Below, in pieces: positions 5,365 to 53,009 of a stretch of 64,000 bases of DNA (positions within the stretch are counted from its first letter, which is position 1; each line of letters begins with the position of its first letter). The position numbers and the translations under genes were made by a program. The stretch is from a virus. Taxonomy: Duplodnaviria > Heunggongvirae > Uroviricota > Caudoviricetes. Location of the stretch: positions 116,967 to 180,966 of the IMG/VR virus record IMGVR_UViG_3300014208_000025; one strand, given 5' to 3'. The notes below the pieces were generated by a model. The model was not told the DNA's origin. It saw only the letters and a list, made by a program, of their open reading frames with translations, and made no database searches.

Positions 5365-5366
5365 GA

Positions 5367-12621: not shown

Positions 12622-12625
12622 GTGA

Positions 12626-13099: not shown

Positions 13100-13105
13100 A
13101 GGTTA

Positions 13106-13600
13106 TTACTTCTTTCCTTCGTTCAATCCCGACCAACCACGTCTTTTTATGTAATGTTGTAAAGCAATCCCAGCACTCTCAACGATTTGTTGCCATACGT
13201 GAATTGGGGGTGGTTCGTCGTCAGGCATATCAGCAATCATTTTCAGATAATCCAACACCGCATCTTTTTCCTCGCCGAATTTTGGCGATTGGTTCAACCC
13301 AACTTCGGCTACTGTTCCGTCATTCTTGACAAATTGTTCGTTCTCCGTGTCATCCCAATAACCAAACTTGTCAGCGATTTGAACGGCACATTGATAGGCC
13401 ACTTTTTGAGCCGTAGAAACATCCTTGATATAACCCAATCCAACCGATTCCACTTGATGATAGGAAATGGTCTTGGCTCCAGTTTCGTGGGCATTAGAAA
13501 ATACCTTTTTCATTCCTGAAACAACGAGTTCTTCTCCGTTAACGGATTCTTTAAGTAATCTAAACTGGTTGTTTTCTACATTTTCAAATAATTTTTTCAT
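13106..13600 (-). CDS. hypothetical protein
   Basis: ORF only. The sense-strand TATTTATA octamer lies 31-38 nt upstream of its ATG. Confidence 0.3.
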   Translation of the reverse strand: MKKLFENVENNQFRLLKESVNGEELVVSGMKKVFSNAHETGAKTISYHQVESVGLGYIKDVSTAQKVAYQCAVQIADKFGYWDDTENEQFVKNDGTVAEVGLNQSPKFGEEKDAVLDYLKMIADMPDDEPPPIHVWQQIVESAGIALQHYIKRRGWSGLNEGKK

Positions 13601-13621
13601 AAGTTGTTGATTATCAATAAT

Positions 13622-14833: not shown

Positions 14834-14903
14834 AGGTCGTATCTCTTCAATAAATATAGAAACAACGGATGATTCTATCTCAAATCTCTCCTATTTATTA
14901 CAT

Positions 14904-15464
14904 ATGATTAGACTCATGGATATCATCAATGAAGATTTGGATATACCGACGCCGGCCCAACATCAACCAGCATCCAATACAATCATCAATTCCGATTTCC
15001 TAAAGTTCGTGATGAATGTGGAAAACGCTGAGTTAAAAGGTCGTGACCCCAAAACTAAAATTTGGCATCCACACTCGTCTCCAGAAGGAGGGTCTGAAAC
15101 GGTTGGATATGGACATAAGTTGAAAAACGGACCAAATGTTCAAAAACATACCAATCTTTCAGACAAAGACGTTGTAAAATTGTTAAGAGATGATTTAGTT
15201 GAAGCAAACAAAAAAGTTCATCAATATGTTGAAAAGGTTTACGGTATCAAAATTTTATTGAACCAAAAACAAGAAGAAATGTTAACCGAATTTGTTTTCA
15301 ATCTTGGTGGATTGGATAAATTTCCAAAATTCACAGAAGCCGTTTTGAAAAATGATATGCCTACAATGAGGAAGGAATACAAAAGATTTTATCGAGGTAA
15401 AGACCAAAAACCTATCGAATTAGAACGACGAAATAAGTTGTTCTATGACCGATTTTTGAAGTGA
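14904..15464 (+). CDS. lysozyme (GH24, T4 e / gp5-lysozyme-like)
   Basis: Glu...Asp...Thr catalytic triad followed by GYGH (NAELKGRDPKT...SETVGYGHKL), as in T4 lysozyme (TIGIGH). ATG at 14904 chosen because the longer listed ORF overlaps the convergent upstream gene. N-terminus MIRLMDIINE fits the leader consensus. Confidence 0.6.
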   Translation: MIRLMDIINEDLDIPTPAQHQPASNTIINSDFLKFVMNVENAELKGRDPKTKIWHPHSSPEGGSETVGYGHKLKNGPNVQKHTNLSDKDVVKLLRDDLVEANKKVHQYVEKVYGIKILLNQKQEEMLTEFVFNLGGLDKFPKFTEAVLKNDMPTMRKEYKRFYRGKDQKPIELERRNKLFYDRFLK

Positions 15465-15487
15465 CATTTTATAGGAAATGTGTTACA

Positions 15488-16930
15488 ATGATGTTTATGA
15501 CTGAAATCAAACAAAGAATCGTAGAAGGAATCAAAGAAAAATCTGCGGAAGACTTTATCCGTCAGACCATTAAAGGTACGGAATGGCAAGGTAAAGTTTT
15601 CGTTGCGGGTGGATATGTCCGAGATGAATTCCTTGGTAAAGACCCCAAAGACCTTGATTTGTTGGTAAACTCCCAAAACGGCGGCATCGAATTCGCCAAT
15701 TGGATTACCAAGAAAATTGGAAAATTCAAAGAAGGATCAAATCCCGTAACTTTTCCAAGGTTTGGCACTGCCAAGTTTAACCTTCTGGGAGTGATCCATA
15801 ATGGAATTGACCTTTCGGACATGGATATTGAGGCCGTAATGCCCCGCAAAGAACAATATACAGCAGGCTCCCGCAAGCCAGATGTATCCCAAGGGGAACT
15901 CAAAGATGACGTGGAACGTCGTGACTTCACTGTAAACAGCCTTTTGAAAGACCTTTCATCGGGTGAAATTCTTGATTTGACAGGCATGGGCAAGGATGAC
16001 ATCAAGGCCGGAATTGTCCGAACTCCGTTGAGTCCCGACAAGATTTTCACCGATGATCCACTCCGTCAGTTGCGAGCCGTTCGTTTCTCAGTCAAATACA
16101 ATTGGAAGTTGCCAATGTTCATGTTGAAGGGGTTGAAACGAAACGCTCCACAACTTAAGAATATTTCCAATGAACGTATCCGTGATGAGCTTGACAAAAT
16201 GTTGATGACGGGTTCCCCCGCCAAAGCTATCAAATTGATGAAAGTAGTCGGATTACTTCCATATGTTATTCCCGAACTCGTTCCAGCAATCAAGATGGTC
16301 CAGAATAAACATCATTCCGAAGATGTTTTTTCTCATACCTTAACAGTATTATCCAAAACTCAACCGGTTTTGATTCAAAGGTTGATGGGTTTGTTTCATG
16401 ATATCGGTAAGACGGTCACAAAATCAGTAACTCCAACAGGGGTACATTTTTATGACCACGAAGACGCGGGTTCAAAAATAGCCGAAAAAGTGATGACTCG
16501 CTTGAAATATCCAACGGAATTGATTGATGCGGTCAAATTGGGTGTGCGTAACCACATGCGTTTGAAATCCGCCAAGGATACCGGCGTGGAATTGTCCGAT
16601 AAGGCACTGCGTAAGTTTAAAATTGAAGTAGGCGACCAATTGGAAAACATTTTGAATGTTATCCATGCAGATAACTGTGCTCATTCAGATGCGTCTGCGA
16701 TGCCTAATCAGATTGCCAACATTCGTAAGCGTCTTGAAACACTGAATATGAATGTGGCCCACGGTAAACCAAAACTTCCCATTACCGGAAACGATTTACA
16801 GGCCATCGGTATCAAGCCCGGCCCAATCTATTCTGAAATTATGAAGTCTGTTACCGAATCGTGGTTTGAAAACCCGGCTATTTCTAAAGAACAGGCATTG
16901 AAAATTGCTAAACAAATTGCCAAAATATGA
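15488..16930 (+). CDS. cca: tRNA nucleotidyltransferase (CCA-adding enzyme), class II head domain plus HD domain
   Basis: GGYVRDEFLGKDPKDLDLLV head motif (G-G-x-V-R-D...D-x-D). HD-type region downstream (HDIGK...HMRLK). The listed ORF starts at a GTG at 15461. The ATG cluster at 15488-15497 is preferred. From 15497 the N-terminus is MTEIKQRIVE (leader-like). Confidence 0.8.
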   Translation: MMFMTEIKQRIVEGIKEKSAEDFIRQTIKGTEWQGKVFVAGGYVRDEFLGKDPKDLDLLVNSQNGGIEFANWITKKIGKFKEGSNPVTFPRFGTAKFNLLGVIHNGIDLSDMDIEAVMPRKEQYTAGSRKPDVSQGELKDDVERRDFTVNSLLKDLSSGEILDLTGMGKDDIKAGIVRTPLSPDKIFTDDPLRQLRAVRFSVKYNWKLPMFMLKGLKRNAPQLKNISNERIRDELDKMLMTGSPAKAIKLMKVVGLLPYVIPELVPAIKMVQNKHHSEDVFSHTLTVLSKTQPVLIQRLMGLFHDIGKTVTKSVTPTGVHFYDHEDAGSKIAEKVMTRLKYPTELIDAVKLGVRNHMRLKSAKDTGVELSDKALRKFKIEVGDQLENILNVIHADNCAHSDASAMPNQIANIRKRLETLNMNVAHGKPKLPITGNDLQAIGIKPGPIYSEIMKSVTESWFENPAISKEQALKIAKQIAKI

Positions 16931-18381
16931 TAAAACTAAAATCATTATTGGTAGAAAAAACTTTGTATCATGGAACGATATCCGATTTTGTTCCAAGTAT
17001 AAAGAAACATGGGCTTTTACCAACTGTCGGCGAATTTGTTAAACATGCGTATGCAGGTTCAGTTGATAATATCGATGCGGAAATTAATGAATACTTGAAG
17101 GATTTGGTGTTTGCGACGGACAAAAAACAATTGGATAAAGCCGTTACCGCAATCACGGCCCAAGTGGGAATCAAACTAAACAAAGATTTCCAAAATGTTA
17201 CGGATGAAGAATTCAAACAATACGGAGCGTTAGCAATCATAAAAGATGGTGATTCCGTAATGAGTCACTACTATCCGAAAGACGATGAAAATTATTATGG
17301 TCAACATCCTTTAACAGTTGAGCCGGGAGATTACTTTTCAGATGAGTATGTTAATGTCGATTACATTTTGACTAAGGACAAATTGATTTCTTTCTTAAGA
17401 CGACTTGGAAGCTGGCCTAGAAAATATGGACCGGATTATAATAAATTTCGTATCGAAGGAAAACTGGCTCCAGAGTCAATACAGGAAATCAAGAAGTATG
17501 ACATAAAGAAACATTACAACATTGATATGCGGCCAAACACCGTCGTTGTTGATTTGGTGAATTCAATTTTGAAGGACATCAAACCGTTGATTTATGAATT
17601 GGGGTTTCGTAATATTAAAATCAACTATGTTACCCACGATACCGAGGCCTTTGCCAGATACAACGGAATTATTGACTCCACCGGCGATCCCATTATTACC
17701 ATGTCCACAAAAATCGTGTATGGTTGGGTAAAGAAATATGGTCACAAGTTAGACCGTGAAATAGAACGAGTAATCGTTCATGAATTGAATCATGCCTATC
17801 TTGAATTGTGTGGATTGGATATCAATAGACAATACAAAGACAGGCAACGAATAGAGCCAATAGTAGAAGACGCTGCTCAAGAATTTGTTGAAGACCGCAA
17901 CGTGCAGAAAGTTAAAGAAACCTTGGATGAGTTCGTTGAAGATTACAGTTTCCATACTGGACACATTGCCGAAACAACGGAATGTCCACGTTGCAATGGT
18001 TGGAAAGTGATTTATGTTCGAGCGGGCATTCCAAATGTTGTTGCCAAATGTCCTGTCTGTGTTGATAAACCCAAGACCATTAAAGTGTATCGTGGGGTAT
18101 CAGAATACAACAAAAAGTATGGCAACTTCTGGACGACTGATAAGGAATGGGCACGCCAGTTTACCCAAGCAGGGTTAGACAAGGAAATCAAACAACGCAC
18201 GATTGATACTTCCGTTATTATGAAACGGGAGAATGTGCCGTTGCCACGAGCCTGTAGTGACAAGGGTTTTGACCAAGCTATAAAGGATGCTGAGTTTGGT
18301 AAATTTGATGCGTTTTGGGTTAATGAAGGTCAAGGCGAACCTCCATCTATTTATGTAATGAACCTTGCGGTGTTAAAATGA
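16927..18381 (+). CDS. multidomain protein: N-terminal PARP/Tpt1-like ADP-ribosyltransferase-fold motifs, HExxH motif, C-terminal CxxC...CxxC zinc ribbon
   Basis: TLYHGTISDFVPSIKKHGLLP closely resembles the KptA/Tpt1 segment FLYHGTASRFLDEILKQGLKP. DLVFATD follows about 37 aa later (compare PARP GIYFAD). Also VIVHELNHAYLEL (HExxH) and CPRCNGW...CPVCVD. Leader MIKLKSLLVE. ATGA overlap with the cca stop. Confidence 0.5.
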   Translation: MIKLKSLLVEKTLYHGTISDFVPSIKKHGLLPTVGEFVKHAYAGSVDNIDAEINEYLKDLVFATDKKQLDKAVTAITAQVGIKLNKDFQNVTDEEFKQYGALAIIKDGDSVMSHYYPKDDENYYGQHPLTVEPGDYFSDEYVNVDYILTKDKLISFLRRLGSWPRKYGPDYNKFRIEGKLAPESIQEIKKYDIKKHYNIDMRPNTVVVDLVNSILKDIKPLIYELGFRNIKINYVTHDTEAFARYNGIIDSTGDPIITMSTKIVYGWVKKYGHKLDREIERVIVHELNHAYLELCGLDINRQYKDRQRIEPIVEDAAQEFVEDRNVQKVKETLDEFVEDYSFHTGHIAETTECPRCNGWKVIYVRAGIPNVVAKCPVCVDKPKTIKVYRGVSEYNKKYGNFWTTDKEWARQFTQAGLDKEIKQRTIDTSVIMKRENVPLPRACSDKGFDQAIKDAEFGKFDAFWVNEGQGEPPSIYVMNLAVLK

Positions 18382-19715
18382 TTAGGTTGCTGAGAATATT
18401 GCTTGAAGGACGAGTTGAGGATTTCAAAAAGAAATACTCCGCGTTACCGCCTGATGTCCAAGCGGAAATCCTAAAAAACGACCCAAGTCCCAACAACAAA
18501 TATTTGGATTGGATGGGCAAGATTGCGTCAATCGAACCAAGTTTGAAGTTAGATACTTTGATTGGTGACGTTGAAGAGTTTGACAAATATCAAGTCATGT
18601 TAGGTGACATCAATCGCTTCAAATCACACAACGATTTGAAACAAGCGTTAATGTCTCGCACCAAAAGCAAGAAACAAACTACCAAGGAAGGTGCTCAAGT
18701 TATCATTGATAATCCCGATTTTTTGGTGGTCGTTCCCAAAACCCAAGACAGTTGTGCTTACTACGGCAACAACACAAAATGGTGCATTGTCAATCAGGAA
18801 TCCTACTGGAACAGTTACTTCTACGAAAACACCATCATCATTCTTTTGGATAGACGCACACATGAAAAGTATGCTATTGTTGGCCGGGCTGACGGCGTTT
18901 TCGTCGTCTATGACCGAAATGACAGTAGAATTGATTACAATTTCTTCATTCGGGATGAAGACGAAGAAGGTGCGTGGCCGGAATACGTTCAAGAAGCAAT
19001 TGAAGAAGCTATGTCAAATGATGACATTGAAGGCCGTAAAGATGAATACATAGGTAAAATGGTGGATACGTTCATTGAAGATAAGGGAGCGGACAAATTG
19101 TGGGAAAACTATTTAGACCGAGTTCATCGGGAATACAAATTGGATGGTGAACCATCAATGGAAGTTTTCAAAAACATCATAAACTCACACGGAATAACCG
19201 ATGAAAAACTTTCCGAATTGTCTGTATCATTATTGTATTACAGCTTACAACAAAACGGAGTCTCTGAGGATGATTTGGGTGAAGTAAATGCCACATCAGA
19301 CATAGACCGTGCGTTAAGAGATATGGGAAAACTGGAAAAAGATGTCGATGGTGGTACGCCTCTTGAATATGCGGTGGGTGATTATGTTCGGTCATTTCGT
19401 GGAGTCGCGGGGCCTCTAGCGGTGATTGAGGATGCGGTTAGTGAACCTATTTTTGACGAGATTTACTATAAGGGAACGATTGATGAAGATTTGTTTGATG
19501 CCATCACCAAATATAACGCAAGATTGAATTCCCCACAACAAATGAGTTTGAAAGGTATGGATAAAGGAAAAGAAACGGTTCATATTAACAACATACAAGA
19601 TGTCATCTATGTTTTCAAGAATACCGGATACGAAGACTGGGCCAATTATTTGTCATCCGTGACCGGTTTAAAAGAAGTGATGAAAACTTATCAACCAAAG
19701 GCTAGACTGTTATGA
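18378..19715 (+). CDS. hypothetical protein with leader-like N-terminus
   Basis: MIRLLRILLE N-terminus. ATGA overlap with the upstream stop. No motif identified in the body. Confidence 0.4.
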   Translation: MIRLLRILLEGRVEDFKKKYSALPPDVQAEILKNDPSPNNKYLDWMGKIASIEPSLKLDTLIGDVEEFDKYQVMLGDINRFKSHNDLKQALMSRTKSKKQTTKEGAQVIIDNPDFLVVVPKTQDSCAYYGNNTKWCIVNQESYWNSYFYENTIIILLDRRTHEKYAIVGRADGVFVVYDRNDSRIDYNFFIRDEDEEGAWPEYVQEAIEEAMSNDDIEGRKDEYIGKMVDTFIEDKGADKLWENYLDRVHREYKLDGEPSMEVFKNIINSHGITDEKLSELSVSLLYYSLQQNGVSEDDLGEVNATSDIDRALRDMGKLEKDVDGGTPLEYAVGDYVRSFRGVAGPLAVIEDAVSEPIFDEIYYKGTIDEDLFDAITKYNARLNSPQQMSLKGMDKGKETVHINNIQDVIYVFKNTGYEDWANYLSSVTGLKEVMKTYQPKARLL

Positions 19716-19816
19716 TTCGTTTAACTCCCATGTTGACCGAAGCCAAGGTCAAGAATCTCTATTGGAATGTGATTCCTCGTCAGATTTGGATAAAGAAACC
19801 TTTAATGAACAGATAA
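19712..19816 (+). CDS. leader-only mini-ORF (34 aa)
   Basis: MIRLTPMLTEAKV... starts in an ATGA overlap with the stop of 18378-19715. Found by hand translation. May be a remnant or a small peptide. Confidence 0.25.
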   Translation: MIRLTPMLTEAKVKNLYWNVIPRQIWIKKPLMNR

Positions 19817-19838
19817 AAAAGTATATTTATGTACCAAT

Positions 19839-20375
19839 ATGATAAATTTAAGTAAAATTCTAAGAGAGGACAGGTCTGAAACTACAGATCGGGGATGTTT
19901 GATGGCAATGGTTCTTGAACCCCAACGTACTGCTATTTTGAACTTTGGTAACAAACTAATTCGTGAAGAGGACTTGTATATCGTAGATGATGAATTCGGT
20001 CGTGAAAAAGAAACCCACGTCACCATTCTCTATGGTTTTGTACCTGATTTGTCTAAAAGCCAAGTCGTTCAAATCATCCGAGACGTGAAACCATTTACCA
20101 TCACTTTAACCGGCGTGGACACATTCAAAAACGAGAAAGAGGGGTTTGATGTAGTGAAGTTTTCCATTGAAAGTCCGATTCTAAGACAACTTAACGCAGA
20201 CGCTCAAAAGTTTCCCAATCAAAATGACTTTCCGAATTATTCGCCTCATATGACGATTGCGTATGTCAAACCAAATACATTCAAAGAAACTCGTAAAGGT
20301 CTAAAAATTGAAATTCCAATTAGTCAAATTTGTTACTCGTCTTCCCAACATCAAAAAATGTATGTCAATCTATGA
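19839..20375 (+). CDS. 2H phosphoesterase (LigT / cyclic phosphodiesterase / Acb1-like fold)
   Basis: Two H-x-T-x motifs with typical spacing: ETHVTILYGF and SPHMTIAYVK. Leader-like MINLSKILRE. Confidence 0.6.
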   Translation: MINLSKILREDRSETTDRGCLMAMVLEPQRTAILNFGNKLIREEDLYIVDDEFGREKETHVTILYGFVPDLSKSQVVQIIRDVKPFTITLTGVDTFKNEKEGFDVVKFSIESPILRQLNADAQKFPNQNDFPNYSPHMTIAYVKPNTFKETRKGLKIEIPISQICYSSSQHQKMYVNL

Positions 20376-20962
20376 TTAAGCTCAAAGAAGTATTAGAAGA
20401 TTTAGGAAATACATTTCAGATGTATCATGGAGGAAAACGTTGGTCACGCCTTCCTACAGAATTGTTAGGAAATTCTCAAGGTCGTTATGAGGCCGGTGTA
20501 GGAATATATTTCACCAATGACTACAATACTGCCCGTCGTTACGCTAAAGGGTCTAGGGTTGTTCATCGTGTTGAAATTGACAAAAACTTCAAAGAAATTG
20601 AAAATGTTAAACTTCCATTAATAGAAGTCGTTGATTTTGTAAAGAATCTTAACGGTCTAAAACGAAGATCGGAAATTATTGATTCATTAAAAAATAATGC
20701 ATCTCGCATGAATACAGATTTTGTATCAGCAAATATTCTTAATAATTTAATTGTGAACTATGAAGCTGGGGCAGGCAAGGTAGGCATTAAAATATCAAAC
20801 TATCTCGTAAGTAAAGGTGTAGATGCCAAATTTGAATCCCAAAGCGGAGACGAGTTTTGGTTAATTGTGTTTAACCCAAACATCATAAAAAAAGTAGATG
20901 TTGTTAACCCTGCTACAGTAAACAGTGATTTCGCATTTACCCTTCCCAATCCATTCCTATGA
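20372..20962 (+). CDS. PARP-like (H-Y-E class) ADP-ribosyltransferase-fold protein
   Basis: QMYHGGKRW followed 28 aa later by GIYFTNDY (compare PARP HGS ... GIYFAD). Leader MIKLKEVLED. ATGA overlap with the stop of the 2H gene. Confidence 0.5.
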   Translation: MIKLKEVLEDLGNTFQMYHGGKRWSRLPTELLGNSQGRYEAGVGIYFTNDYNTARRYAKGSRVVHRVEIDKNFKEIENVKLPLIEVVDFVKNLNGLKRRSEIIDSLKNNASRMNTDFVSANILNNLIVNYEAGAGKVGIKISNYLVSKGVDAKFESQSGDEFWLIVFNPNIIKKVDVVNPATVNSDFAFTLPNPFL

Positions 20963-21043: not shown

Positions 21044-22006
21044 ATGAAACTCAAGACCATTCTTTTACTCGGTGAATCTTCCGGCTTCGGCATCGCCGGC
21101 GGTCCTTTGGGTGGTTCATTGACTTCTCATGATACTAAACTACGAGCCTATCCTAATAGTATGGATGACGTTGAAGGTTGGAATGGAATTGTTGAGGGTG
21201 ATGGTTGGTTTGTACATAGGGAATCAAATAATTGGGATACTAAACTTTCCGGAGCAAGCGTGTATATCACCGAGGGAGAACCACACAAGTATTGGATGCG
21301 TATCAAAACCCACGGCTTACGCAAGCCAAACGACACGAATGAATCCTACCGCCAACGTATCAATAAACACTCAGACAAGGTTGCCCGAGCATGGATGACT
21401 GCTGCGAAGAAACTCCACAACAATCCCGAAATCAACGAAGTCGGTAACGAGATTCAGATGACGTGGAAAGAAGCTTTCAAGTTAGCATTGGAGAGTGCCA
21501 AGGTCAAACCCTTCATCGCTGAATATGGAGAACGTCAGATAAATCCGACAAAACGTGCCTTAGACCGTGTAAGTCCGCCTATATCAGACCCTATTAATTT
21601 TACCCCAAGATTGGAAGAACAAGCGAATCCTCAAATTGGTTGGTCTGCCGTCGTGTTGGATGAACAATCCAAGAATCGTTTATTGACTGAATTCGGCTCC
21701 AAAATACCTGATGGGTTCGAAAAGATTGCTCATCACATGACGATTACAATGGGCGGATTACCACCCGAGAAGAAGGGTGACGTTGGTAAAACGGTGACTC
21801 TATTGGCCACTCACATAGGAATTTCTGAAAAGGCCATTGCGGTTAAAGTTTCAGGCTATTTCACAACCAATAAAAATCCACACGTTACTTTAGCCATTGA
21901 TAGAAATGGTGGGGCCAATCCAGTTGATTCCAATAAAATCACTAATTGGGAAACGTTGCCGCAACCAATTTCTCTATCGGGGAAAGTAACTGAGTATTCT
22001 CGTTAA
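21044..22006 (+). CDS. two-domain protein with C-terminal 2H phosphoesterase domain
   Basis: AHHMTITMGG and NPHVTLAID (two H-x-T-x motifs) in the C-terminal ~120 aa. Leader-like MKLKTILLLGE. Confidence 0.5.
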   Translation: MKLKTILLLGESSGFGIAGGPLGGSLTSHDTKLRAYPNSMDDVEGWNGIVEGDGWFVHRESNNWDTKLSGASVYITEGEPHKYWMRIKTHGLRKPNDTNESYRQRINKHSDKVARAWMTAAKKLHNNPEINEVGNEIQMTWKEAFKLALESAKVKPFIAEYGERQINPTKRALDRVSPPISDPINFTPRLEEQANPQIGWSAVVLDEQSKNRLLTEFGSKIPDGFEKIAHHMTITMGGLPPEKKGDVGKTVTLLATHIGISEKAIAVKVSGYFTTNKNPHVTLAIDRNGGANPVDSNKITNWETLPQPISLSGKVTEYSR

Positions 22007-24269: not shown

Positions 24270-24566
24270 CTATCCATGTATGAGCAAAAATATTTCCGTA
24301 AATCCAATTGACTTGTAAAATTCGATCAAATCTTTCTTTTCTAATTTTTTGCCGGGCATATTAGCTAGTGGTTGAGCATGTAACCAACAATGTTTAGGTA
24401 AAAATCGAGCTAATTTTTTGGCAAACCCTTTACCTCTATATTTTGGATAGACTACAAAAGATTCCACTTTAGGGATTCCCCCAAAAAGATTAGACGGGGC
24501 AACATCAAAATAACCGTAAAATTTTTTAATTTCGGATTCTAAGATAAGATGCTTTAATTTAATCAT
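24270..24566 (-). CDS. mini GNAT-like protein (acetyltransferase motifs A and B only) with MIKLK leader
   Basis: VVYPKYRGKGFAKKLARFL (GNAT motif A Q/RxxGxG/A) and IEFYKSIGF (motif B). Leader MIKLKHLILE. ATGA overlap with the upstream gene. Confidence 0.35.
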   Translation of the reverse strand: MIKLKHLILESEIKKFYGYFDVAPSNLFGGIPKVESFVVYPKYRGKGFAKKLARFLPKHCWLHAQPLANMPGKKLEKKDLIEFYKSIGFTEIFLLIHG

Positions 24567-24856
24567 ACTTTTCCAAGACGTTTTTTAACATCTGACAATT
24601 TGTATCGTCCTCTAGGAAATTTAAACAATTCTTCTGACGTGGGCATCTCATACCCCATTTTATTCATATGTTCTGGATTACTAGAAAAATGATTTTGTCC
24701 ACTAGAAATGTCATCTATTTGAACGTAATTAAACTGTGGAAACGATTCGTCTTTTTGTATTGTGACCATTAATACATCATCATTCAAATATGGTAAACGT
24801 CGTTTAACTTCGGAGTCTTTTATTGTTCCTTCAATGAGATGTTTAAGCTTAATCAT
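24563..24856 (-). CDS. hypothetical protein with MIKLK leader (possible N-terminal half of a split GNAT)
   Basis: MIKLKHLIEG leader. Directly precedes and overlaps the mini-GNAT ORF. Confidence 0.3.
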   Translation of the reverse strand: MIKLKHLIEGTIKDSEVKRRLPYLNDDVLMVTIQKDESFPQFNYVQIDDISSGQNHFSSNPEHMNKMGYEMPTSEELFKFPRGRYKLSDVKKRLGKV

Positions 24857-25769: not shown

Positions 25770-27551
25770 TTATACAGTGTCCAAGTCTGCGACGAGGATT
25801 TTCCCGTAAAACTCGGGCCGCACGATCTTCTTCGCGTAACGGGTCATTACACCGCGTCTTGGGGTGAAATTCACTGGATCATACACCAAAGGTGTTTGAA
25901 CGAGTGGGATGTATGGAGCATAGACAGCTCCCGTTTCGAGGAAGTTATTTCCACGGAAGCCCAACAGAATGACGTTATCCGTCATATATGGGTTCTTATA
26001 GACTTGGAAGCGACTTGCGAAGCTACCAACACGGCTTACGCCCATGGCATACTTGGCTTGATCGCCATCTGTGTTCACAACGAATCCCGGAATGGATTCT
26101 AAAATCGTTGATACGTCTGGGGAGACGACCATGAAGTTAGCACCACCACGGAGGGTCAATTGGTGAATCTTGTTGGATACCTTTTGAATCTTGTTACCAA
26201 GAGTCTGATACCATGTTGCCTTGGTGTAATAGCCACCTGTTCCAGCAACCGTTTGGGTCACGACGTTGTAACCACCTGAGCCGTTAGGCACGATTTCGGT
26301 GTTGAGCTTGGCGCTCCAACGTTCCGTTGTTAATGCTGGGGCATTGGTAATCAACATGTCGAGAATTTCGAGGTCAATTTCCATTGAAACATATTCAGAC
26401 AACAGGGCCGTCAATTCGGCTTCTGCATCAATACTATGATAAGCATTCAAGTCTTGAGCGAGTTCTGGAGTCCAGACTGCCTTCAACTTACGAGTCTTAG
26501 CGACGATTGGTTCGCTTTTGAGTTCCAAGTTTACTTCTGGAATACCAATATCTTTGTTAAGACCGGTATCAGGAGCGTTGGTTGACTTACCTGTTGGATT
26601 GAAGAACGAGACACCACTGTTTCCAGTGTTATCTTCGAAGTCACCACGGTTACTATCCGTTGGTTGAACGGAGTAGATAACAGAACCAGTCAAGGAGCCG
26701 GTTGGTTGAACTGGAGCGGAACCAGAAGCTACGAAAGTTACTTCGCCGGCCGTGGTCAATTTGGTGAATGCTGGGTAATATTCACACACACCACCAACAT
26801 TCAATTCACCTGCTGCGCCGCCTGGTGTTACCGGCATAAATGAACGAACTGCGTTCGCGTCAAATACGTTACCATTAACCAACGACATGGCTCGGAAATT
26901 GTTTGTGGTAATGGCAAACAATTGACCGGCGGCCCATGATGCTGAAATGGAATTCAACAATTTGTCAGCGGAACCAGAACGTGCAGCCTGCACATAATAG
27001 TTGGTCAACCAATTAATGTCTTCCTGAGTAGCGGCTACGCTAGTAAAGGAACACGTTACGATTTTGTCGTTGGCAGTATAGCCATACTTACCAACGCCAT
27101 ACAGACCACCGATTGGCTTATCTGTTGAACCTGATTTGACGCCTGTTCCACCGAATAGTGATGAATAGTTACCGGTTGCATCAGCTGGACGACCACCTTG
27201 GGCTGAACCATACTTGAAATCCAAGTAAAATACGAGGCCCGATGGTAGATTCATTGGCTGGACGGAGACGAACTCCTTGGCAGCAAATTCTGCGAATACA
27301 CGCCGAACGAGTGGGAGAGCTACGCCTGCCCATTGTTCGGAGTTTGCGGAAGTACCAGTAGCAGTAGCTTCTTCAATTAGCTGTTTAGCTTGATTTTCGA
27401 GCAACACTGACATGTTGGACTTCTCGATATCACTTTTGATACCTTCGAGCAAGCCGGTCTTATCCCACTTGGTCACTAGACCACGGGTTTCCGTCATCAA
27501 GCGAGCTTGAGGATTCATTGTGTTTGTTAACAACGATTTAATGTTTTCCAT
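25770..27551 (-). CDS. major capsid protein (T4 gp23-like)
   Basis: QPMNLPSGLVFYLDFKY (T4 QPMNSPTGQVF). RKLKAVWTPELAQDLNAYHSIDAEAEL (T4 RQLKAAYSIELAQDLRAVHGMDADAEL). C-terminal YAPYIPL...TRY. N-terminal propeptide-like segment with LLEG / VLLEN. Confidence 0.9.
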   Translation of the reverse strand: MENIKSLLTNTMNPQARLMTETRGLVTKWDKTGLLEGIKSDIEKSNMSVLLENQAKQLIEEATATGTSANSEQWAGVALPLVRRVFAEFAAKEFVSVQPMNLPSGLVFYLDFKYGSAQGGRPADATGNYSSLFGGTGVKSGSTDKPIGGLYGVGKYGYTANDKIVTCSFTSVAATQEDINWLTNYYVQAARSGSADKLLNSISASWAAGQLFAITTNNFRAMSLVNGNVFDANAVRSFMPVTPGGAAGELNVGGVCEYYPAFTKLTTAGEVTFVASGSAPVQPTGSLTGSVIYSVQPTDSNRGDFEDNTGNSGVSFFNPTGKSTNAPDTGLNKDIGIPEVNLELKSEPIVAKTRKLKAVWTPELAQDLNAYHSIDAEAELTALLSEYVSMEIDLEILDMLITNAPALTTERWSAKLNTEIVPNGSGGYNVVTQTVAGTGGYYTKATWYQTLGNKIQKVSNKIHQLTLRGGANFMVVSPDVSTILESIPGFVVNTDGDQAKYAMGVSRVGSFASRFQVYKNPYMTDNVILLGFRGNNFLETGAVYAPYIPLVQTPLVYDPVNFTPRRGVMTRYAKKIVRPEFYGKILVADLDTV

Positions 27552-29240: not shown

Positions 29241-29951
29241 ATGCCCGCAAAATCTAAAAAGCAACAACGGTTTTTTGGACTCGTAAGAGCCATTCAAAAA
29301 GGTGATAAATCCGCTAGCACTGCTTCACCCGCAGCTCGTAAAGTAGCGGGTTCTATTAGTGCTAAGGATGCTGGCGACTTCGCCAAATCCGTGGCGGAAC
29401 TCAAAATCAAGAAGGCCGTATTGGAAATCTTGAAAGACGCTCGTGAACCCATGTATCTTGAGGAACAAGAAACCAATCCGGTTGCCAAGACATTCACCAT
29501 CAAGGATGATTTTGAACGTTACGCAAAACGTTATGTAGGGCAACCATTCTCTCCCAAAGAACTCGAAGCCCTTGATACTTTTCAAGAAACCAAACCAACC
29601 AAAATTGACCGCATTGAAATTCGATATGAAACTACCGACGAGTTTCAAAACACAACTTCCACAATTCTGAAAAAAATGAAGGATAGTGGTCAGTTCTGTT
29701 TTACCGCTTTCACCAAACACACTAAAATTGAGTCCGAAGAAGAACCTGAGACGAGTGATGAACCAACCGGCGAACCGGTAATGGGTGGCAACGAACCGGC
29801 TCCGGGAAGCCTTTCGATGAAGGAACAACAAGATCCGGCTCCAATGGATGAACCAAAGGATGATATCATTGTAACCAAATCAACATTGTTTAATGATGAC
29901 ATAAAGGGTGCTGCGGTTCTTGCGGAATTTTTAAAAAAACTCGACCTATGA
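29241..29951 (+). CDS. hypothetical protein, basic N-terminus, acidic C-terminus
   Basis: ORF. Divergent from the scaffold gene. Confidence 0.4.
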   Translation: MPAKSKKQQRFFGLVRAIQKGDKSASTASPAARKVAGSISAKDAGDFAKSVAELKIKKAVLEILKDAREPMYLEEQETNPVAKTFTIKDDFERYAKRYVGQPFSPKELEALDTFQETKPTKIDRIEIRYETTDEFQNTTSTILKKMKDSGQFCFTAFTKHTKIESEEEPETSDEPTGEPVMGGNEPAPGSLSMKEQQDPAPMDEPKDDIIVTKSTLFNDDIKGAAVLAEFLKKLDL

Positions 29952-30250
29952 TAAAATTGAAGGAAATACTTCATCGCCTCCACGCTGAGAACGAACAAGG
30001 TCTAACTGAAGTTGATAGTTGGAAAATCACGGATGCCGACTATTTGACAGACATGGGGTTTACCATTGATGGTATGTATCATTTCGGGTTGAAGAAACCT
30101 GAGATAAAGATTGCTCACAAAAAGGGTCAGGGCTTCATCGTTGAAGACATGACCAAAAACAGAAAACAAGTTTTTCCCAAGTTTACCGAACTGATGGAAT
30201 ACTTTTCAAAGTATCAACAACGTTGGGAACGGGAACCATATTCAGAATGA
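29948..30250 (+). CDS. hypothetical protein with MIKLK leader
   Basis: MIKLKEILHR. ATGA overlap with the upstream stop. Confidence 0.35.
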   Translation: MIKLKEILHRLHAENEQGLTEVDSWKITDADYLTDMGFTIDGMYHFGLKKPEIKIAHKKGQGFIVEDMTKNRKQVFPKFTELMEYFSKYQQRWEREPYSE

Positions 30251-39402: not shown

Positions 39403-40020
39403 TTACTTCCCAATTTCAGTAAGAATGTCACGAACAATGGATTCGGCATGCTCCCACTTATTCGTAACCGGGTTCTTTATCATACCTTCATTGATGTTGC
39501 CACTTGGAAACATGAAAGCTCCACGAGTAGATGGATTAGAAACGAAGTCGAAAGCAATCAATTCAAAGTCATCTTGAACAATGTCGGCTTGCTCACGCAT
39601 ATCCTTTTGTACCGTGCCCATACCACGACTGGAAATACCAAGCCGGATATTGGCTCGGAACAATTCTTTGAGAATGTTACCGTTAGGAGTAGGCAACACT
39701 TCAATCGAACCAATCAAGTTATCACCTTCCCAATGGACTTCAAGAACGTTATGTGAAACGTTTTGAAGATTGACCACCGAAGATTCTGGGTGGTCAAGTT
39801 CGCCTAATGCACGTCGTTCTTTTACAAAGTTTTCAGTATATTTTGAGGCTTCACGTAGCAAAACGTTTTTAGTATAAACCCGTCCGTTTTGGTTCTTAAC
39901 ACCGGAACGTTGAAGAATACCCTTTACTACCAATCGGCGATTTGGGTCGTCATTAGTATTTTCAAAGAGATTATCTTTTACATAATCAAACGCAATACAA
40001 TCTACCAACAATTGTTTCAT
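39403..40020 (-). CDS. prohead core protease (T4 gp21 / peptidase S77-like)
   Basis: GELDHPESS and LGISSRGMG (candidate catalytic His/Ser, as remembered for gp21). Size 205 aa. Position between internal-protein-like genes and downstream of the portal. Confidence 0.55.
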   Translation of the reverse strand: MKQLLVDCIAFDYVKDNLFENTNDDPNRRLVVKGILQRSGVKNQNGRVYTKNVLLREASKYTENFVKERRALGELDHPESSVVNLQNVSHNVLEVHWEGDNLIGSIEVLPTPNGNILKELFRANIRLGISSRGMGTVQKDMREQADIVQDDFELIAFDFVSNPSTRGAFMFPSGNINEGMIKNPVTNKWEHAESIVRDILTEIGK

Positions 40021-41129
40021 ATATCCAATCCTCCATTCAATTCAAAATTGAATATGTAAGTCCTACCCGCTGGTTGAATATTAACATATCCATGACTAAA
40101 TGGTTCACCGGGGCCACCTGAACGTCGTTCTTCGGTTTTAACAAATAGTTCAAATTCTTTCGGATCAAAATCCTTTCCCAAAATATCAATCGGAATTCGT
40201 AATCGATATTGATTGCTATACATACCATCGTGGTCATGACCCGATGAACGTGCCCGTGTAACAAACGGTCTTACATCAAAACGATTGTTATTTGTAAATT
40301 CAGAAAACAGGCGACCAAGAGCTTGTTGAGCATCATCTTTACTCAACAAAATTTTGCCCACGTTTTCATCACCCTCTCCAGCCGTTTCTTCGGCAACGGG
40401 TGCGGGAGCTACCACCTTCTTCTTTTTCTTCAATGGTAAAGGTGGTTGTTCTGGTTTAGCTGGTTGAGTTGGAGCTGTTGGCTGGCCTTGTGGAGCTTGT
40501 GGTTCAGGCTTGACCGTGGGTTCAGGAGCCGGTGCTTCTGGTGCTGCTGGTTCTTCAGCAGGGGCTTCCGGTTTTGGAGTTGGGGCTGGTGGTTCCGGTG
40601 CTTTCGGCGGTTCATTTGGAGCCTCTTGACCCGCCTCAGGTTCTTCCGCACCCGGTTCAACGGCTTGACCGCCAGTTTCAATCTTGATATTGATACCCGG
40701 CGTTAGGAAAAACTTCTTGTCATTTTCATCACTAACAATGACTACCCAATCCTTATACCAAAATTCAACACTAACCTTCTTAACGTTATCAATGGTATAA
40801 TCCGTCTTTGGTTGTCCATAACCGCGTGATGCGTTAGCCACAACTTTCTTACCCAACATCATCTTGTTCATTTTGTCCAACAACTTTTTCTTCGCTGCAG
40901 ATTCAGCCTTGTTCTTCGTATCTTCAAAGGCACGAAAATCCCGTGTGAAATCGTATTCGGATGGGTCTTCGGGAGTAGGTGCGGTATCTGGTCTTGCCGC
41001 CGAAATTGGCTCTTGAGGAGTTGGCGACGATGTGGGGGCGCCTTGAGCAGGCACAGGAGCCGAAACAGGTGTTCCCGGAGGCTGCGGAGCTTGTTCAGTT
41101 ACGTTTAATAGTTCTTTCAGTTTTATCAT
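40017..41129 (-). CDS. MIKLK-leader protein with long Pro/Ala/Glu-rich linker (candidate prohead core/internal protein)
   Basis: MIKLKELLNVTE. PEPPAPTPKPEAPAEEPAAPEAPAPEP low-complexity region. Confidence 0.4.
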   Translation of the reverse strand: MIKLKELLNVTEQAPQPPGTPVSAPVPAQGAPTSSPTPQEPISAARPDTAPTPEDPSEYDFTRDFRAFEDTKNKAESAAKKKLLDKMNKMMLGKKVVANASRGYGQPKTDYTIDNVKKVSVEFWYKDWVVIVSDENDKKFFLTPGINIKIETGGQAVEPGAEEPEAGQEAPNEPPKAPEPPAPTPKPEAPAEEPAAPEAPAPEPTVKPEPQAPQGQPTAPTQPAKPEQPPLPLKKKKKVVAPAPVAEETAGEGDENVGKILLSKDDAQQALGRLFSEFTNNNRFDVRPFVTRARSSGHDHDGMYSNQYRLRIPIDILGKDFDPKEFELFVKTEERRSGGPGEPFSHGYVNIQPAGRTYIFNFELNGGLDI

Positions 41130-46261: not shown

Positions 46262-47914
46262 TCAACGAAGTAGCCAAGTCAGGTCCTCCGTATCTCCCGG
46301 CTTTCCACCTGTCTTCATCCTCCATTGAGCTTGTCCTGTAGTCATGGATTTAGAAGTATAAATGGGAGTGTTATCATTTTGAGACTCCACATGAATCTTA
46401 CTCAACATGCTTTGAGTCAACAAAATTCCTTCTTGACGAAGCCTTAAAGCGGTGTCTCGTATCCATAAACCAAACCCCAAAGCCATTACCAAGTCATCGT
46501 TATAATTCTCTGCCGCCTGAGGTTTTCCGTTATCCCAAATGAAAGTTTTCAATTCGTTGATGAGCCGAATAGAACGGATGTCAATTGACCGGTCGAGGAA
46601 ATAACGGTGAATTTTTGATACAATTAAAGGTCGGGTCGCACTTGACGTTTCACAGCCGGGCAGACACTTTTGTTCGGCTCGGTTGTGTTTGTTGGTCATT
46701 TGTCGTTGCACATCTACAATTTTCAAATCGTTGGAACTGTAAAAGGTGTTTTTGTAACCACGGTCAATAACTTTCTGTAATACCGAATAGCCCAAGCCAC
46801 CCGTTCTTTCAATCACGAGTAACGCATCATTGTATTCAGTAGCCAAAGCGACCAACAAATCTCCGTATTCTGCCGGTGTCAAAAAATCCTGAAATTCAGC
46901 TACTTGAGTTAGACTATCCATTTCCAAGACATGAGCCGCAGAATAATCTTTACCATCGCCACGGGCCGTATCTGCACAGACAATGTAATCCACACCGGCT
47001 TTAGGTGGGTCAAATATCCAAAGAGCTTGTCCACGTCTGATTTCAACGGGGTCACGCACTTTGGTTTCTTCATACTCCTTCAAAATCATCAGGTCAATAA
47101 CGTTGGCACCCGAGGATAGGAAGTCGCAATCACATTCCTGGCTGGCTCCACGGGCACCCAAATTTTTTGTTTGTTCATCACGCCAGCGTTGGTCACGTTC
47201 AGGATGAAGAACCCAAGGCAATTTCAATGTATGGAAGTCGTTTTTCTTCTTCTCAGCTTCTACCCACATTCTATGAAACCAGTTACCGACACCGTTTGGA
47301 GTAGAAAGGATGATGGCCCGGCCGCCCGTTGACAAGGTGTTGTAAGCCGATGTCCAGATGTCTTCGGCTGAATCAATGAAAGCGGCTTCATCAAGCACCA
47401 ACAGACTTAATGCCTTTGAACGACCAGCATCCGTTGATGATGAAGTAGCAAGAATTGAAGAACCGTTTTTCAACCGCAAAGACAAACGGTTATCTTCAGT
47501 CGCAATGACCTTCAACCACGATGGAAGATGATCGTTGGCAAATCTAACTTTGGTAATAATTTCTTTACTGACTTCCTGTTTGATGGAAATGATGAGAATG
47601 CTCTTGTCACTGTGGAAAATCATCATCCATAAAGCATACGCTGATACCAAGGTGGTGATGCCCAACTGACGGGACTTCAATATCAATAAATAACGATAGT
47701 CATGAAATTTGTCCAGCGTGTTTTCTTGGAAAGGAAACAAGTCAAAGGGAATTGTGCCTTTATGGGGATGTTGAATCTTGACATACTTTCGCATGAAGTA
47801 GATAGGGTCGGCCATACACTTCTTCGTTTCGTCACGGATAACATCTCTTAGGTTTGGTTGCGGCATAGATTTAGTATTTTCCCACACCCATTCGGTCATA
47901 CCATTCCGAACCAA
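46262..47914 (-). CDS. terminase large subunit (T4 gp17-like)
   Basis: Walker A-like KSRQLGITTLV (T4 SRQLGKT). Walker B LLVLDEAAFI. C-terminal nuclease-like region. Confidence 0.85.
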   Translation of the reverse strand: MVRNGMTEWVWENTKSMPQPNLRDVIRDETKKCMADPIYFMRKYVKIQHPHKGTIPFDLFPFQENTLDKFHDYRYLLILKSRQLGITTLVSAYALWMMIFHSDKSILIISIKQEVSKEIITKVRFANDHLPSWLKVIATEDNRLSLRLKNGSSILATSSSTDAGRSKALSLLVLDEAAFIDSAEDIWTSAYNTLSTGGRAIILSTPNGVGNWFHRMWVEAEKKKNDFHTLKLPWVLHPERDQRWRDEQTKNLGARGASQECDCDFLSSGANVIDLMILKEYEETKVRDPVEIRRGQALWIFDPPKAGVDYIVCADTARGDGKDYSAAHVLEMDSLTQVAEFQDFLTPAEYGDLLVALATEYNDALLVIERTGGLGYSVLQKVIDRGYKNTFYSSNDLKIVDVQRQMTNKHNRAEQKCLPGCETSSATRPLIVSKIHRYFLDRSIDIRSIRLINELKTFIWDNGKPQAAENYNDDLVMALGFGLWIRDTALRLRQEGILLTQSMLSKIHVESQNDNTPIYTSKSMTTGQAQWRMKTGGKPGDTEDLTWLLR

Positions 47915-48851
47915 GTGACCACAAACCTCTCGCTACTGTTGATGGTTTGAATTTTCGCCAACGATTTTGGTGTTGGCTATGGATATAAATCGAACGGATA
48001 TGTCCGGGTAGAATTCTTCCACGATAACCAAATTTTCCAGCTTCTTTTGACAGACCCATCGGCTTCATTGGAGACGCACCAACCTTTTTTGGAGGATTGG
48101 GATTGTCATAAAATCGTGGTTGTGTAGAATGAGCATCCGCGTCATAATCAGGAATGACCTTGGCCGAGTCGGGTATTTTAAATTCTATGACAACGGGATA
48201 TGCTTCCGGTTTCTTCTTGTAACCATCATAAGTTGATTTGGTAAAATCAACGGTAGAATGTAACGCATAAAATTCGGCATCATCAAAAGTAGCGGCAAAG
48301 AAAGAATCGATTTCATGATAAATTTCCCGATGGGTAAAATTGCCCTCCGTTTCGCCCGCCGAAATACCTCTTTTTAGAATGTCTTTTAGGTTGACAGTAT
48401 TTGTCCCATGAAACCCAATTTTTGGTACATCACCAATGTTTTTTCTAGCCCCATAAGTTATGTCATCGTCACCGGCGTCGGGGGATGCTCTCGTGATTTT
48501 TTTTATGCCTAGTTGACGGATGATTTTGGATAACATGACCGAGGAAACCGGATTACTTTTATCTCCGCCTTGAACATACAACGATTTATCAACTGGGTCA
48601 TACTGACCGGCCATTACATCGGGCGGCATATCAGCTGCGTAGGAAATCAACTCATAAACATCTTCCGCATTGAAACCATAATTCGTATCAAACGCTGGAT
48701 GGTCTTCGAGCCAATGGACTACAGTAGATATGTCACTGTTATCATCCAAGACAAATAGCTTATCCCGCCAAGCAATAAAAAACTTGGCGGCTTTACCCTT
48801 GGACAAGTCGGTGACTCGTAGTTCTTTAAGCAGTGGCTTTAGGTGTATCAT
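47871..48851 (-). CDS. ADP-ribosyltransferase-fold (Tpt1/PARP-like) protein with leader, overlapping the terL start
   Basis: IGFHGTNTVNLKDILKRGI (compare KptA LYHGTASRFLDEILKQGL). SFFAATFDD follows 34 aa later (PARP GIYFAD). Leader MIHLKPLLKE. Confidence 0.45.
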   Translation of the reverse strand: MIHLKPLLKELRVTDLSKGKAAKFFIAWRDKLFVLDDNSDISTVVHWLEDHPAFDTNYGFNAEDVYELISYAADMPPDVMAGQYDPVDKSLYVQGGDKSNPVSSVMLSKIIRQLGIKKITRASPDAGDDDITYGARKNIGDVPKIGFHGTNTVNLKDILKRGISAGETEGNFTHREIYHEIDSFFAATFDDAEFYALHSTVDFTKSTYDGYKKKPEAYPVVIEFKIPDSAKVIPDYDADAHSTQPRFYDNPNPPKKVGASPMKPMGLSKEAGKFGYRGRILPGHIRSIYIHSQHQNRWRKFKPSTVARGLWSLGSEWYDRMGVGKY

Positions 48852-52505: not shown

Positions 52506-53009
52506 ATGATTAAGTTGAAAACTATAGTAAAGGAAATCGCAGAATCTGGATATGCGGATGATTTTTCTAAATCGAATAATGCCTTAAATGCAGAATCTTC
52601 TGGATTATATCCCGCCACTATTTTAGGCAAAAAATTACATGTAAATCCCAAATCAATCGTAGCATTGATGCAACCGTCCGAATGGCATCATACATCTAAA
52701 ATGTATAACGTCACCAATTACTATTCTGAGGAACAAGCGTTAGAAATTATTGACGATTTGAAAAAATGGAAAGAACCTCTCCAAGATGTTTCGGTTTTTG
52801 AGGATGTTTCAGGAAGTTATTTAGTTTGGACTGGAACTAGAAATCATCCTCATGCAACAGAAATTGAATTTAAGAATGCCAAAGCATACAAAAAAGGAAC
52901 TTGGTATATTTTGGAATTACCTGATGGAACTAGAATAAAGAAGGGTGAAAATACAAGAGGATTTCATTTATATGATAAAAACAAAAAATCTTTAACGTTC
53001 AATCGTTAA
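52506..53009 (+). CDS. hypothetical protein with MIKLK leader
   Basis: MIKLKTIVKEIAE. Confidence 0.35.
   Translation: MIKLKTIVKEIAESGYADDFSKSNNALNAESSGLYPATILGKKLHVNPKSIVALMQPSEWHHTSKMYNVTNYYSEEQALEIIDDLKKWKEPLQDVSVFEDVSGSYLVWTGTRNHPHATEIEFKNAKAYKKGTWYILELPDGTRIKKGENTRGFHLYDKNKKSLTFNR

Follow-up and report, generated by a model that had tools for sequence, protein, structure and literature searches.

Three ADP-ribosyltransferase-fold proteins share a short N-terminal leader with other proteins of an uncultured phage that has T4-type head genes

We analyzed a 64-kb stretch of DNA (the window; positions 116,967 to 180,966 of IMG/VR record IMGVR_UViG_3300014208_000025; 40% GC) from a 351,839 bp (352-kb) public metagenomic contig of a tailed phage, which carries three genes for proteins with an ADP-ribosyltransferase (ART) fold. 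Protein A (484 residues; 16927..18381, plus strand; MIKLKSLLVEKTLYHGT ... DLVFATDK) and protein B (196 residues; 20372..20962, plus strand; MIKLKEVLEDLGNTFQMYHGG ... GIYFTND) are encoded close together, and the gene for protein C (326 residues; 47871..48851, minus strand; MIHLKPLLKEL ... GFHGT ... SFFAATFDD) lies directly upstream of the terminase gene. An earlier description of the window, made from its letters and translated open reading frames (ORFs) and called here the sequence-only reading, had singled out these three ORFs, and they are present with the residues that it quoted. A DNA search of this region against 50,697 phage records returned no match, and neither did tblastn searches of the same records with the ART-fold module of A or with B.

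The sequence-only reading placed the three proteins in the H-Y-E class of ARTs on the basis of an HGx motif followed 28–37 residues later by a [YF]-F-[AT] motif. That spacing holds for C (33 residues) only, the gap being 43 residues in A and 23 in B, and the whole pattern exactly as written matches C alone; A reads V-F-A-T-D and does not fit. A loosened pattern, HG[TGS]-x20-45-[YFV][FY][ATS]x[TD], matches exactly A, B, and C among the 59 ORFs of the window, compared to 0.046 matches in shuffled proteins, and the motifs rise above chance because they are conserved within each protein family. A His, an aromatic residue, and an acidic residue follow one another in the expected H-[YF]-[ED] order and are conserved in each case (H15/F62/E132 in A, H19/Y46/D151 in B, and H148/F184-185/E223 in C), which places the third-motif residue at E132 in A, at E223 in C, and at D151 in B, with E161 as an alternative in B. 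Thus, the His and the order of the acidic residue agree with the class proposed earlier, but B has an H-Y-D set and A and C have Phe rather than Tyr at the second position. R-S-E ARTs (T4 Alt, ModA, and ModB) carry Arg in strand 1, S-T-S in strand 2, and E-x-E in strand 5. The contrast drawn with these enzymes was borne out, as all three proteins have His in place of Arg and none matches the Pfam ADPrib_exo_Tox or ART families. Because the window covers 64 of 352 kb, it cannot establish that the phage lacks Alt-type ARTs.

The outcome that the sequence-only reading had named as refuting, a predicted structure with no ART fold, did not occur. Structure models of the N-terminal module of A and of C have the split β-sheet ART architecture at the fold level, B matches an ART profile as described below, and a search of BFVD found ART-rich paralogues of phage G, a phage KptA, DarT, and PARP-domain proteins. 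Weak but consistent sequence matches to PTS_2-RNA and PARP fall at the HG[ST] strand. Pfam and NCBIfam contain no model for the family of the A module or for that of C, no curated ART model reaches threshold on either protein, and an NCBIfam search with A, B, and C gave nothing useful. Pairwise hhalign comparisons of the three family alignments gave non-significant probabilities of 0.2%, 0.5%, and 10.7%. We therefore rejected a common origin of the three domains and treated them as separate families; with no detectable sequence kinship among them, the phage carries three different ART families. By sequence, these are an unclassified H-F-E family (the N-terminal part of A), an ART-PolyVal-like H-Y-D family (B), and a second unclassified H-F-E family (C).

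Protein B consists of a leader (MIKLKEVLE) followed by the ART-PolyVal-like domain. It matches Pfam ART-PolyVal (PF18760; Tox-ART-HYD2 clade) with an E-value of 1.2e-5 and a score of 26.6 bits over profile positions 4–135 of 140, as do 57 of its 62 relatives (best E 2.2e-8), and 16 relatives also match the ART-clan family DUF3990. By contrast, A and C have no match to PF18760 and no detectable kinship with it. ART-PolyVal, which occurs in polyvalent proteins of phages and conjugative elements, is defined as an H-Y-D family (PMC5512222), and this configuration was found in B only. Within the B family (62 sequences), Y46, D151, and E161 are invariant and H19 is conserved in at least 90% of members. 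When B is aligned to bona fide ART-PolyVal domains, MYHGG stands for VYHGT, GIYFTND for GFFFTDS, and EFWLIVFNP for the last strand, and the invariant G149-V-D151 aligns with G-[YH]-D-G of P0016 and P0031. In these alignments G149-V-D151 is likely to be the counterpart of G-[YH]-D-G, and E161 is the alternative. B thus resembles ART-PolyVal in its profile match, strand-1 His, Tyr in GIYFT, and invariant G-x-D, and differs from it in being a stand-alone protein of 196 residues with a ~35-residue insertion.

Protein A is a small polyvalent protein, built of a leader, an ART-fold module, an internal leader remnant, an HExxH module, a zinc ribbon, and a mobile C-terminal domain. We derived this architecture from the modular coverage of BLAST matches and from alignments of homologues; several unrelated enzymatic domains share one polypeptide, and these domains belong to a hub-domain network. 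The leader (MIKLKSLLVE, residues 1–10; 16927..16956, plus strand) ends in L-V-E, and in the model of A residues 1–7 are disordered and strand 1 starts at residue 13. The ART-fold module (module 1; residues 11–170; 16957..17436, plus strand) contains TLYHGT (H15), LVFATDK (F62), and VEPGDY (E132). Across 25–64 diverse sequences with 39–88% identity to A, 12 residues of module 1 are invariant, including H15, K66, and E132; D65, D135, and Y136 are near-invariant, and F62 is kept in at least 90%.

The HExxH motif and zinc ribbon reported earlier for A were confirmed, and both are kept in homologues. Module 1 is followed by a linker (IEGKLAPESIQE, residues 176–187; 17452..17487, plus strand). Stand-alone homologues of the rest of A (P0004, P0006, and P0007) start with MIKLK..[LIV]xE exactly at GKLAPESIQE of this linker, and this alignment with N-terminal leaders makes I-Q-E a candidate internal protease site in A. 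Module 2 (residues 188–345; 17488..17961, plus strand) is zincin-like, with an invariant HExxH (HELNH, residues 285–289, nucleotides 17779–17793) and an invariant downstream Glu; it matches BSP peptidase (E 0.0014) and YbeY weakly. Judging from the invariant residues, the simplest identification of module 2 is a zincin-like metallopeptidase, a type that serves more often than any other as a hub in polyvalent proteins. The zinc ribbon (CPRC(353)-x18-CPVC(375), residues 353–378; 17983..18060, plus strand) is kept in eight homologues. Module 3 (residues 385–484, ~100 residues; 18079..18381, plus strand; YRG.S..N ... KEWARQFTQSG.D.EI ... W..EG...P.SIY) is independently mobile. It has 22 invariant residues (Y.G.S..N ... 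E.AR.FTQ.G.D.EI ... W..EG...P.SI) and recurs in P0023, P0030, and P0032, the last of which is a stand-alone copy that bears the MIKLK leader as well. Module 3 has no match in PDB or Pfam and matches only phrog_4776. We considered module 3 as a minimal R-S-E ART (YRG ... TT ... EG) and rejected this for now, given an Arg-to-TT spacing of 15 residues, a length of ~100 residues, and no support from PDB, Pfam, or hhalign.

The recurring sequence matches of module 1 are to Tpt1/KptA, the RNA 2'-phosphotransferases. Nine of 25 family members match Pfam PTS_2-RNA (best E 0.0033), Tpt1 chains are matched in a PDB sequence search (E 0.006–0.02), and the NCBIfam RNA 2'-phosphotransferase model is matched at E 0.02. 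These matches stop short of full-length Tpt1/KptA: they cover ~25 residues around HGT, with 13.1 bits against a cut-off of 26 in Pfam (PF01885) and 13–14.5 bits against 231–239 in NCBIfam (NF002013/NF002014). In the PDB search, many influenza haemagglutinin chains outrank Tpt1 (E ~6e-4; A residues 8–95 against the HA1/HA2 junction and fusion-peptide region); we discarded them as a chance likeness of GL.P.VG.FV to the fusion peptide, and the lower-ranking Tpt1 matches are the only ones in agreement with the fold. Tpt1/KptA is also the best structural neighbour of the models of both module 1 and C, which share with it an hhYHGT strand and a helix ending in G-[IL]; a genomic setting with 2H and tRNA enzymes is a further point in common. 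Tpt1 structures have an N-terminal RNA-binding lobe and an Arg-His-Arg-Arg (R-H-R-R) tetrad. Only the lobe that binds nicotinamide adenine dinucleotide (NAD+) is matched here, the RNA lobe and tetrad are missing, and the proteins have an invariant Glu that Tpt1 lacks. By these sequence measures, neither module 1 nor C is a Tpt1.

Protein C has a leader (MIHLKPLLKE), an N-terminal α/β domain, and a C-terminal ART-fold domain (residues ~140–305; nucleotides 47937–48434) that includes GYRGRI and in which H148, F184/F185, and E223 are invariant across the family. Distant homologues (24–28% identity, E ~3e-9) occur in 50 records of KVP40-like Vibrio phages (Schizotequatrovirus), where they are annotated as hypothetical. 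These homologues (for example, AGB06963.1 of VH7D) keep FYHGT, VFITT, VIIEIRIPD, and GYKGRI; they differ from C in the N-terminus (MEELQLVTE), in a non-structural gene neighbourhood, and in being unannotated. A local jackhmmer search from C also drew in module 1 proteins, a domain-hopping artefact caused by two-domain fusions: in P0182 module 1 is joined to a C-type domain (E 1.6e-34), and in P0017 to a more distant C-like domain.

Module 1 is widespread. Its profile finds 556 representatives of clusters at 50% identity with E ≤1e-3, 203 of them at ≤1e-30, which range from stand-alone proteins of 150–250 residues to giants of 4678 and 5251 residues. Within single polypeptides it is joined to GNAT, ART-PolyVal, PBECR5 nuclease, CCA-adding enzyme, NUDIX, HicA, PcfJ, lysozyme, SET, and GIY-YIG domains. 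Bona fide ART-PolyVal domains are fused to it in P0016, P0031, and P0245, a lysozyme in P0009, and a CCA-adding enzyme in P0019, and internal copies in fusion proteins retain L-x-E-K ahead of TLYHGT. Iyer et al. predicted that polyvalent proteins are packaged in virions and injected, with ART as a hub domain (PMC5512222, PMC9503650). By domain content, the partners of module 1 are the polyvalent-protein domain network of PMC5512222.

The leader that begins A, B, and C is the second element of this locus. The sequence-only reading had noted it on the three proteins, and it proved real and more widely distributed, at 11–12 of the 59 ORFs. The consensus is M-I-K-L-K-x-L-L-x-E, ~10 residues long, and ends in [LIV]-x-E. 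Eleven ORFs start with M-I-[KRHN]-L, compared to 0.16 expected, and a twelfth (at 21044) starts with MKLK. Glu occupies position 10 in 7 of the 11 (background Glu frequency 6%); [LIV]-x-E ends at residue 10 in these seven leaders and at residues 9–12 in most of the others. The hydrophobic positions 4, 7, and 8 and Glu 10 are conserved, and the codons differ between copies, which places the conservation at the protein level. In T4, the first 10 residues of IPIII form a capsid-targeting sequence in which residues 4 and 7 serve targeting and residues 8 and 10 serve processing; gp21 cleaves after L/I-X-E. Alt, which sheds a propeptide from its N-terminus, is packaged, as are the internal proteins, and all of them enter the host by ejection (PMC9026906, PMC3012670). 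In the present phage, too, otherwise unrelated proteins have a short N-terminal peptide in common, its last residues form the gp21 motif at about position 10, and the window carries the gene for a protease of gp21 type. The hydrophobic residues at 4, 7, and 8, Glu 10, and this protease lead us, by analogy with T4, to read the leader as a probable capsid-targeting and cleavage tag.

Besides A, B, and C, the window has at least nine further leader-bearing proteins, a set of unrelated enzymes and small proteins. A GH24 lysozyme (14904..15464, plus strand; MIRLMDIINE) is the first gene of a plus-strand cargo island. It is followed by a CCA-adding tRNA nucleotidyltransferase (15461..16930, plus strand) whose stop overlaps the start of A. 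Downstream of A are a weakly PcfJ-like protein of 445 residues (18378..19715, plus strand; MIRLLRILLE) and a LigT/Acb1-like 2H phosphoesterase (19839..20375, plus strand; MINLSKILRE; Pfam 2_5_RNA_ligase2 2.8e-12). The latter also matches the anti-CBASS Acb1 family (E 2e-8), and this similarity makes an injected enzyme that degrades cyclic-nucleotide signals possible. B is followed by a 2H-like protein with a variant leader (21044..22006, plus strand; MKLKTILLLGE; phrog_36523) and two H-x-T motifs near its C-terminus. The remaining carriers are a 98-residue GNAT acetyltransferase (24270..24566, minus strand; MIKLKHLILE); proteins of 97 (24563..24856, minus strand; MIKLKHLIE), 100 (29948..30250, plus strand; MIKLKEIL), and 167 residues (52506..53009, plus strand; MIKLKTIVKE) with no assigned function; and a 370-residue protein (40017..41129, minus strand; MIKLKELLNVTE) encoded in the head module directly upstream of the prohead protease gene. 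A contig from a related phage (L003) has the same island after a gp13-like gene, with the CCA-adding enzyme gene in synteny, and there the leader is found on a partly different set of cargos, namely GNAT, ParB-like, 2H, and unassigned proteins. Roughly at the place of the GH24 lysozyme, L003 encodes a 744-residue protein with CelD_N and a cellulase-type glycoside hydrolase family 9 domain (11603–13837, plus strand), an unusual phage cargo. A distant module 1 protein from another lineage (P0028) keeps the domain and is missing the leader.

The window encodes a major capsid protein of T4 gp23 type (25770..27551, minus strand; Pfam PF07068, E 7e-72), a prohead protease of T4 gp21 type (Peptidase_S77; 39403..40020, minus strand; Pfam E 1.5e-25; phrog_207, 3.2e-50), a large terminase of T4 type (TerL), and a portal protein. 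These four genes show that head morphogenesis is T4-like in this uncultured huge phage, and the S77 protease is the candidate enzyme for leader removal. The portal protein (43064–46099, minus strand; 1011 residues) has an HNH-endonuclease-like segment at residues ~194–434, before the portal domain at residues 443–846; this segment may represent either an intein-like insertion or a homing endonuclease fused to the portal protein. Among the structural genes stand two homing-endonuclease-like genes of GIY-YIG type, one of them with NUMOD3, and the gene of another NUMOD3 protein (24876–25640, minus strand; 36343–37176, plus strand; 30223–30867, plus strand). The phage also encodes an SPFH/Band 7 protein whose N-terminus is lipoprotein-like (MKKLITTLFACVTVLAITGC; 31541–32443, minus strand), followed by a small hydrophobic ORF (32459–32710). 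A second class of N-terminal motif, MK..[LQ]LK.LVK.V[IL].E with [IL]-x-E near residue 16, occurs on proteins of no assigned function around the prohead protease gene (41194–42123, 38588–39397, and 38211–38579 in the window; 5184–5990 and 4195–4707 in L003; all on the minus strand); its carriers may belong to the prohead core or scaffold and have protease sites of their own.

The T4 late promoter TATAAATA is over-represented in the window (12 occurrences compared to 3.5 expected). It is the reverse complement of TATTTAT[AGT], which in gene orientation lies 11–37 nucleotides upstream of ~16 gene starts (for example, at 14892, 19824, 21028, 24862, 43024, and 58486) and may be a lineage-specific promoter. 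TATTTAT[AGT] precedes structural, cargo, and homing-endonuclease genes alike, and we dropped the T4 late promoter as evidence of late expression.

We propose, with a probability of roughly 0.6, that the three ART-fold proteins are NAD+-using effectors that are packaged by means of the tag, trimmed by the prohead protease, and injected. The leader would act like the T4 capsid-targeting sequence and bring each protein into the prohead core, where the gp21-type protease would cut after [LIV]-x-E and probably also within A, at the leader remnant that separates its modules. The mature enzymes would then be ejected with the DNA. In the host, the ART domains would bind NAD+ through the strand-1 His and the strand-2 aromatic residue and, with the strand-5 Glu or Asp, pass ADP-ribose to a host target early in infection. 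We estimate this target to be a host protein for B (modification of host proteins is presumed for its ART-PolyVal relatives; PMC5512222) and, for A and C, either a protein or the end of an RNA. An RNA-end acceptor is plausible for A and C because of the Tpt1-like NAD+ lobe, the coupling of A to a CCA-adding enzyme and the P0019 fusion, and the neighbouring 2H enzymes.

The earlier analogy with T4 Alt was strengthened, though not proved, by the length and [LIV]-x-E ending of the leader and by the gp21-type protease, gp23-type capsid, and T4-type terminase. Alt and the T4 internal proteins (PMC9026906, PMC3012670) resemble the present set in having a short tag on unrelated proteins, [LI]-x-E at about residue 10, T4-type head genes, and an ART in the cargo. 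The tag sequence differs from that of T4, the cargo is much larger (at least 12 genes per 64 kb, including lysozyme, 2H, GNAT, and PcfJ-like proteins), and Alt is an R-S-E ART whereas the proteins here are H-[YF]-[ED]. Packaging was shown experimentally in T4; here we infer it, together with cleavage, NAD+ use, and target. Delivery with the DNA is likewise predicted for ART-PolyVal. Diphtheria-toxin/PARP-type H-Y-E ARTs and DarT share the order and type of motifs (YHGT, [VF][FY][AS]TD, and an acidic residue before strand 5). Compared to these enzymes, the proteins here show no significant sequence similarity, have Phe for Tyr, are smaller, and lack a regulatory or receptor domain; we saw no DarG-like partner.

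Several observations weigh against the proposal. The score of B against PF18760 is under the Pfam gathering threshold (26.6 compared to 31.2 bits), and the Tyr of canonical H-Y-E enzymes is replaced by Phe in A and C. In the model of A, the loop that holds E132 is of lower confidence, with a predicted local distance difference test (pLDDT) score of about 57–83; the model of C is modest (mean pLDDT 65.7, built from seven sequences), and that H, F, and E converge in space is our assumption from the order of secondary structure in the models. Glu is missing at position 10 in four to five leader copies, and the promoter-like motif common to structural and cargo genes also stands before homing-endonuclease genes and so does not establish late co-expression.

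The alternative that survives best, although we still consider it unlikely, bears on the leader and is separate from the function of the ART domains, so that its likelihood overlaps those of the other alternatives. The leader might be a translation-initiation or expression feature, reflecting A/T-rich 5' coding sequence, or a signal for another location, for example the membrane or a phage compartment, in which case the ARTs would act inside the infected cell after de novo synthesis, like T4 ModA and ModB. The leader codons are indeed A/T-rich, no obvious Shine-Dalgarno sequence precedes the leader genes, and some copies lack Glu 10. Yet the amino acids are kept across copies while synonymous codons vary, the hydrophobic residues 4, 7, and 8 and Glu 10 correspond to positions with a mapped function in the capsid-targeting sequence of T4 (PMC9026906), and fusion proteins retain L-x-E-K immediately ahead of the domain in their internal copies. 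Moreover, one gene of the head module that encodes a leader protein lies directly upstream of that for the gp21-type protease, and C is beside the terminase gene.

A role in RNA repair rather than host modification is somewhat less probable again. Module 1, and perhaps C, would be KptA/Tpt1-like and, together with the CCA-adding enzyme and the two 2H enzymes, would restore tRNAs that host nucleases had damaged, using NAD+ to remove 2'-phosphates or to process RNA ends. Tpt1/KptA is the top structural match for both models and the sole recurring sequence match, A is translationally coupled to a CCA-adding enzyme that is fused to module 1 in P0019, B is flanked by 2H phosphoesterases, the related phage keeps the genes for the CCA-adding enzyme and 2H proteins in synteny, and repair modules of KptA and 2H (with or without Nudix) have been described in jumbo phages (PMC9503650). 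However, the Tpt1 matches span just 25–55 residues around the HGT strand and reach 13–19 bits, well under the cut-offs given above; module 1 begins right after the leader, so the N-terminal RNA lobe with the Arg-His of the R-H-R-R tetrad is absent from A; and an invariant Glu in the strand-5 region is typical of H-Y-E transferases and not of the H-H-h clade, to which Tpt1 belongs (PMC7955679). We saw no RNA ligase in the window, and the lysozyme, GNAT, and SET partners and ParB-type neighbours suit an effector arsenal better than a single repair pathway. It is least probable that the domains, module 1 in particular, are degenerate and without transferase activity (an adaptor or packaging 'carrier', an NAD+ glycohydrolase, or an ADP-ribose-binding decoy), which would explain the attachment of this hub domain to many unrelated partners and would fit the Phe for Tyr in A and C and their sub-threshold scores for every curated ART model, because the 12 invariant and three near-invariant residues of module 1 form a typical active-site pattern, many members are stand-alone proteins of 170–250 residues with nothing to carry, and a separate 10-residue leader explains packaging better, with P0028 keeping the domain without it.

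The reading of the three proteins as injected effectors can be pushed further, to a form that we regard as speculative and doubtful: the leader would mark an injected arsenal of at least 12 genes in 64 kb, the A-type fusions would be polyproteins cut at internal remnants, and the acceptors of ADP-ribose from module 1 and C would be RNA ends or tRNA, not proteins.

Head-packaged ARTs are already known from T4 Alt, and head-packaged H-Y-[ED] ARTs have been predicted for phage polyvalent proteins (PMC5512222, PMC9503650). ARTs are also abundant in jumbo phages, more than 40% of which encode one, with at least 10 in phage G (PMC9503650). What is new here is a pair of ART families that no curated model covers, the first widespread and the second found in cultured KVP40-like phages, and a distinct leader that links at least 12 diverse proteins to a T4-type head. 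The finding thus extends the known principle of head-packaged ARTs and does not introduce a new one. If our proposal is correct, the T4 strategy of 'tag, package, cleave, inject' reaches huge uncultured phages, and the leader with [LIV]-x-E would provide a simple sequence rule for listing injected effectors without proteomics. If, in addition, module 1 and C do act on RNA, they would be the first injected RNA-directed ARTs. The C family occurs in cultured KVP40-like Vibrio phages and is therefore open to direct testing, and which substrates the two unclassified families use (host protein, tRNA or RNA ends, or NAD+ itself) matters for understanding how a large phage disarms its host in the first minutes of infection.

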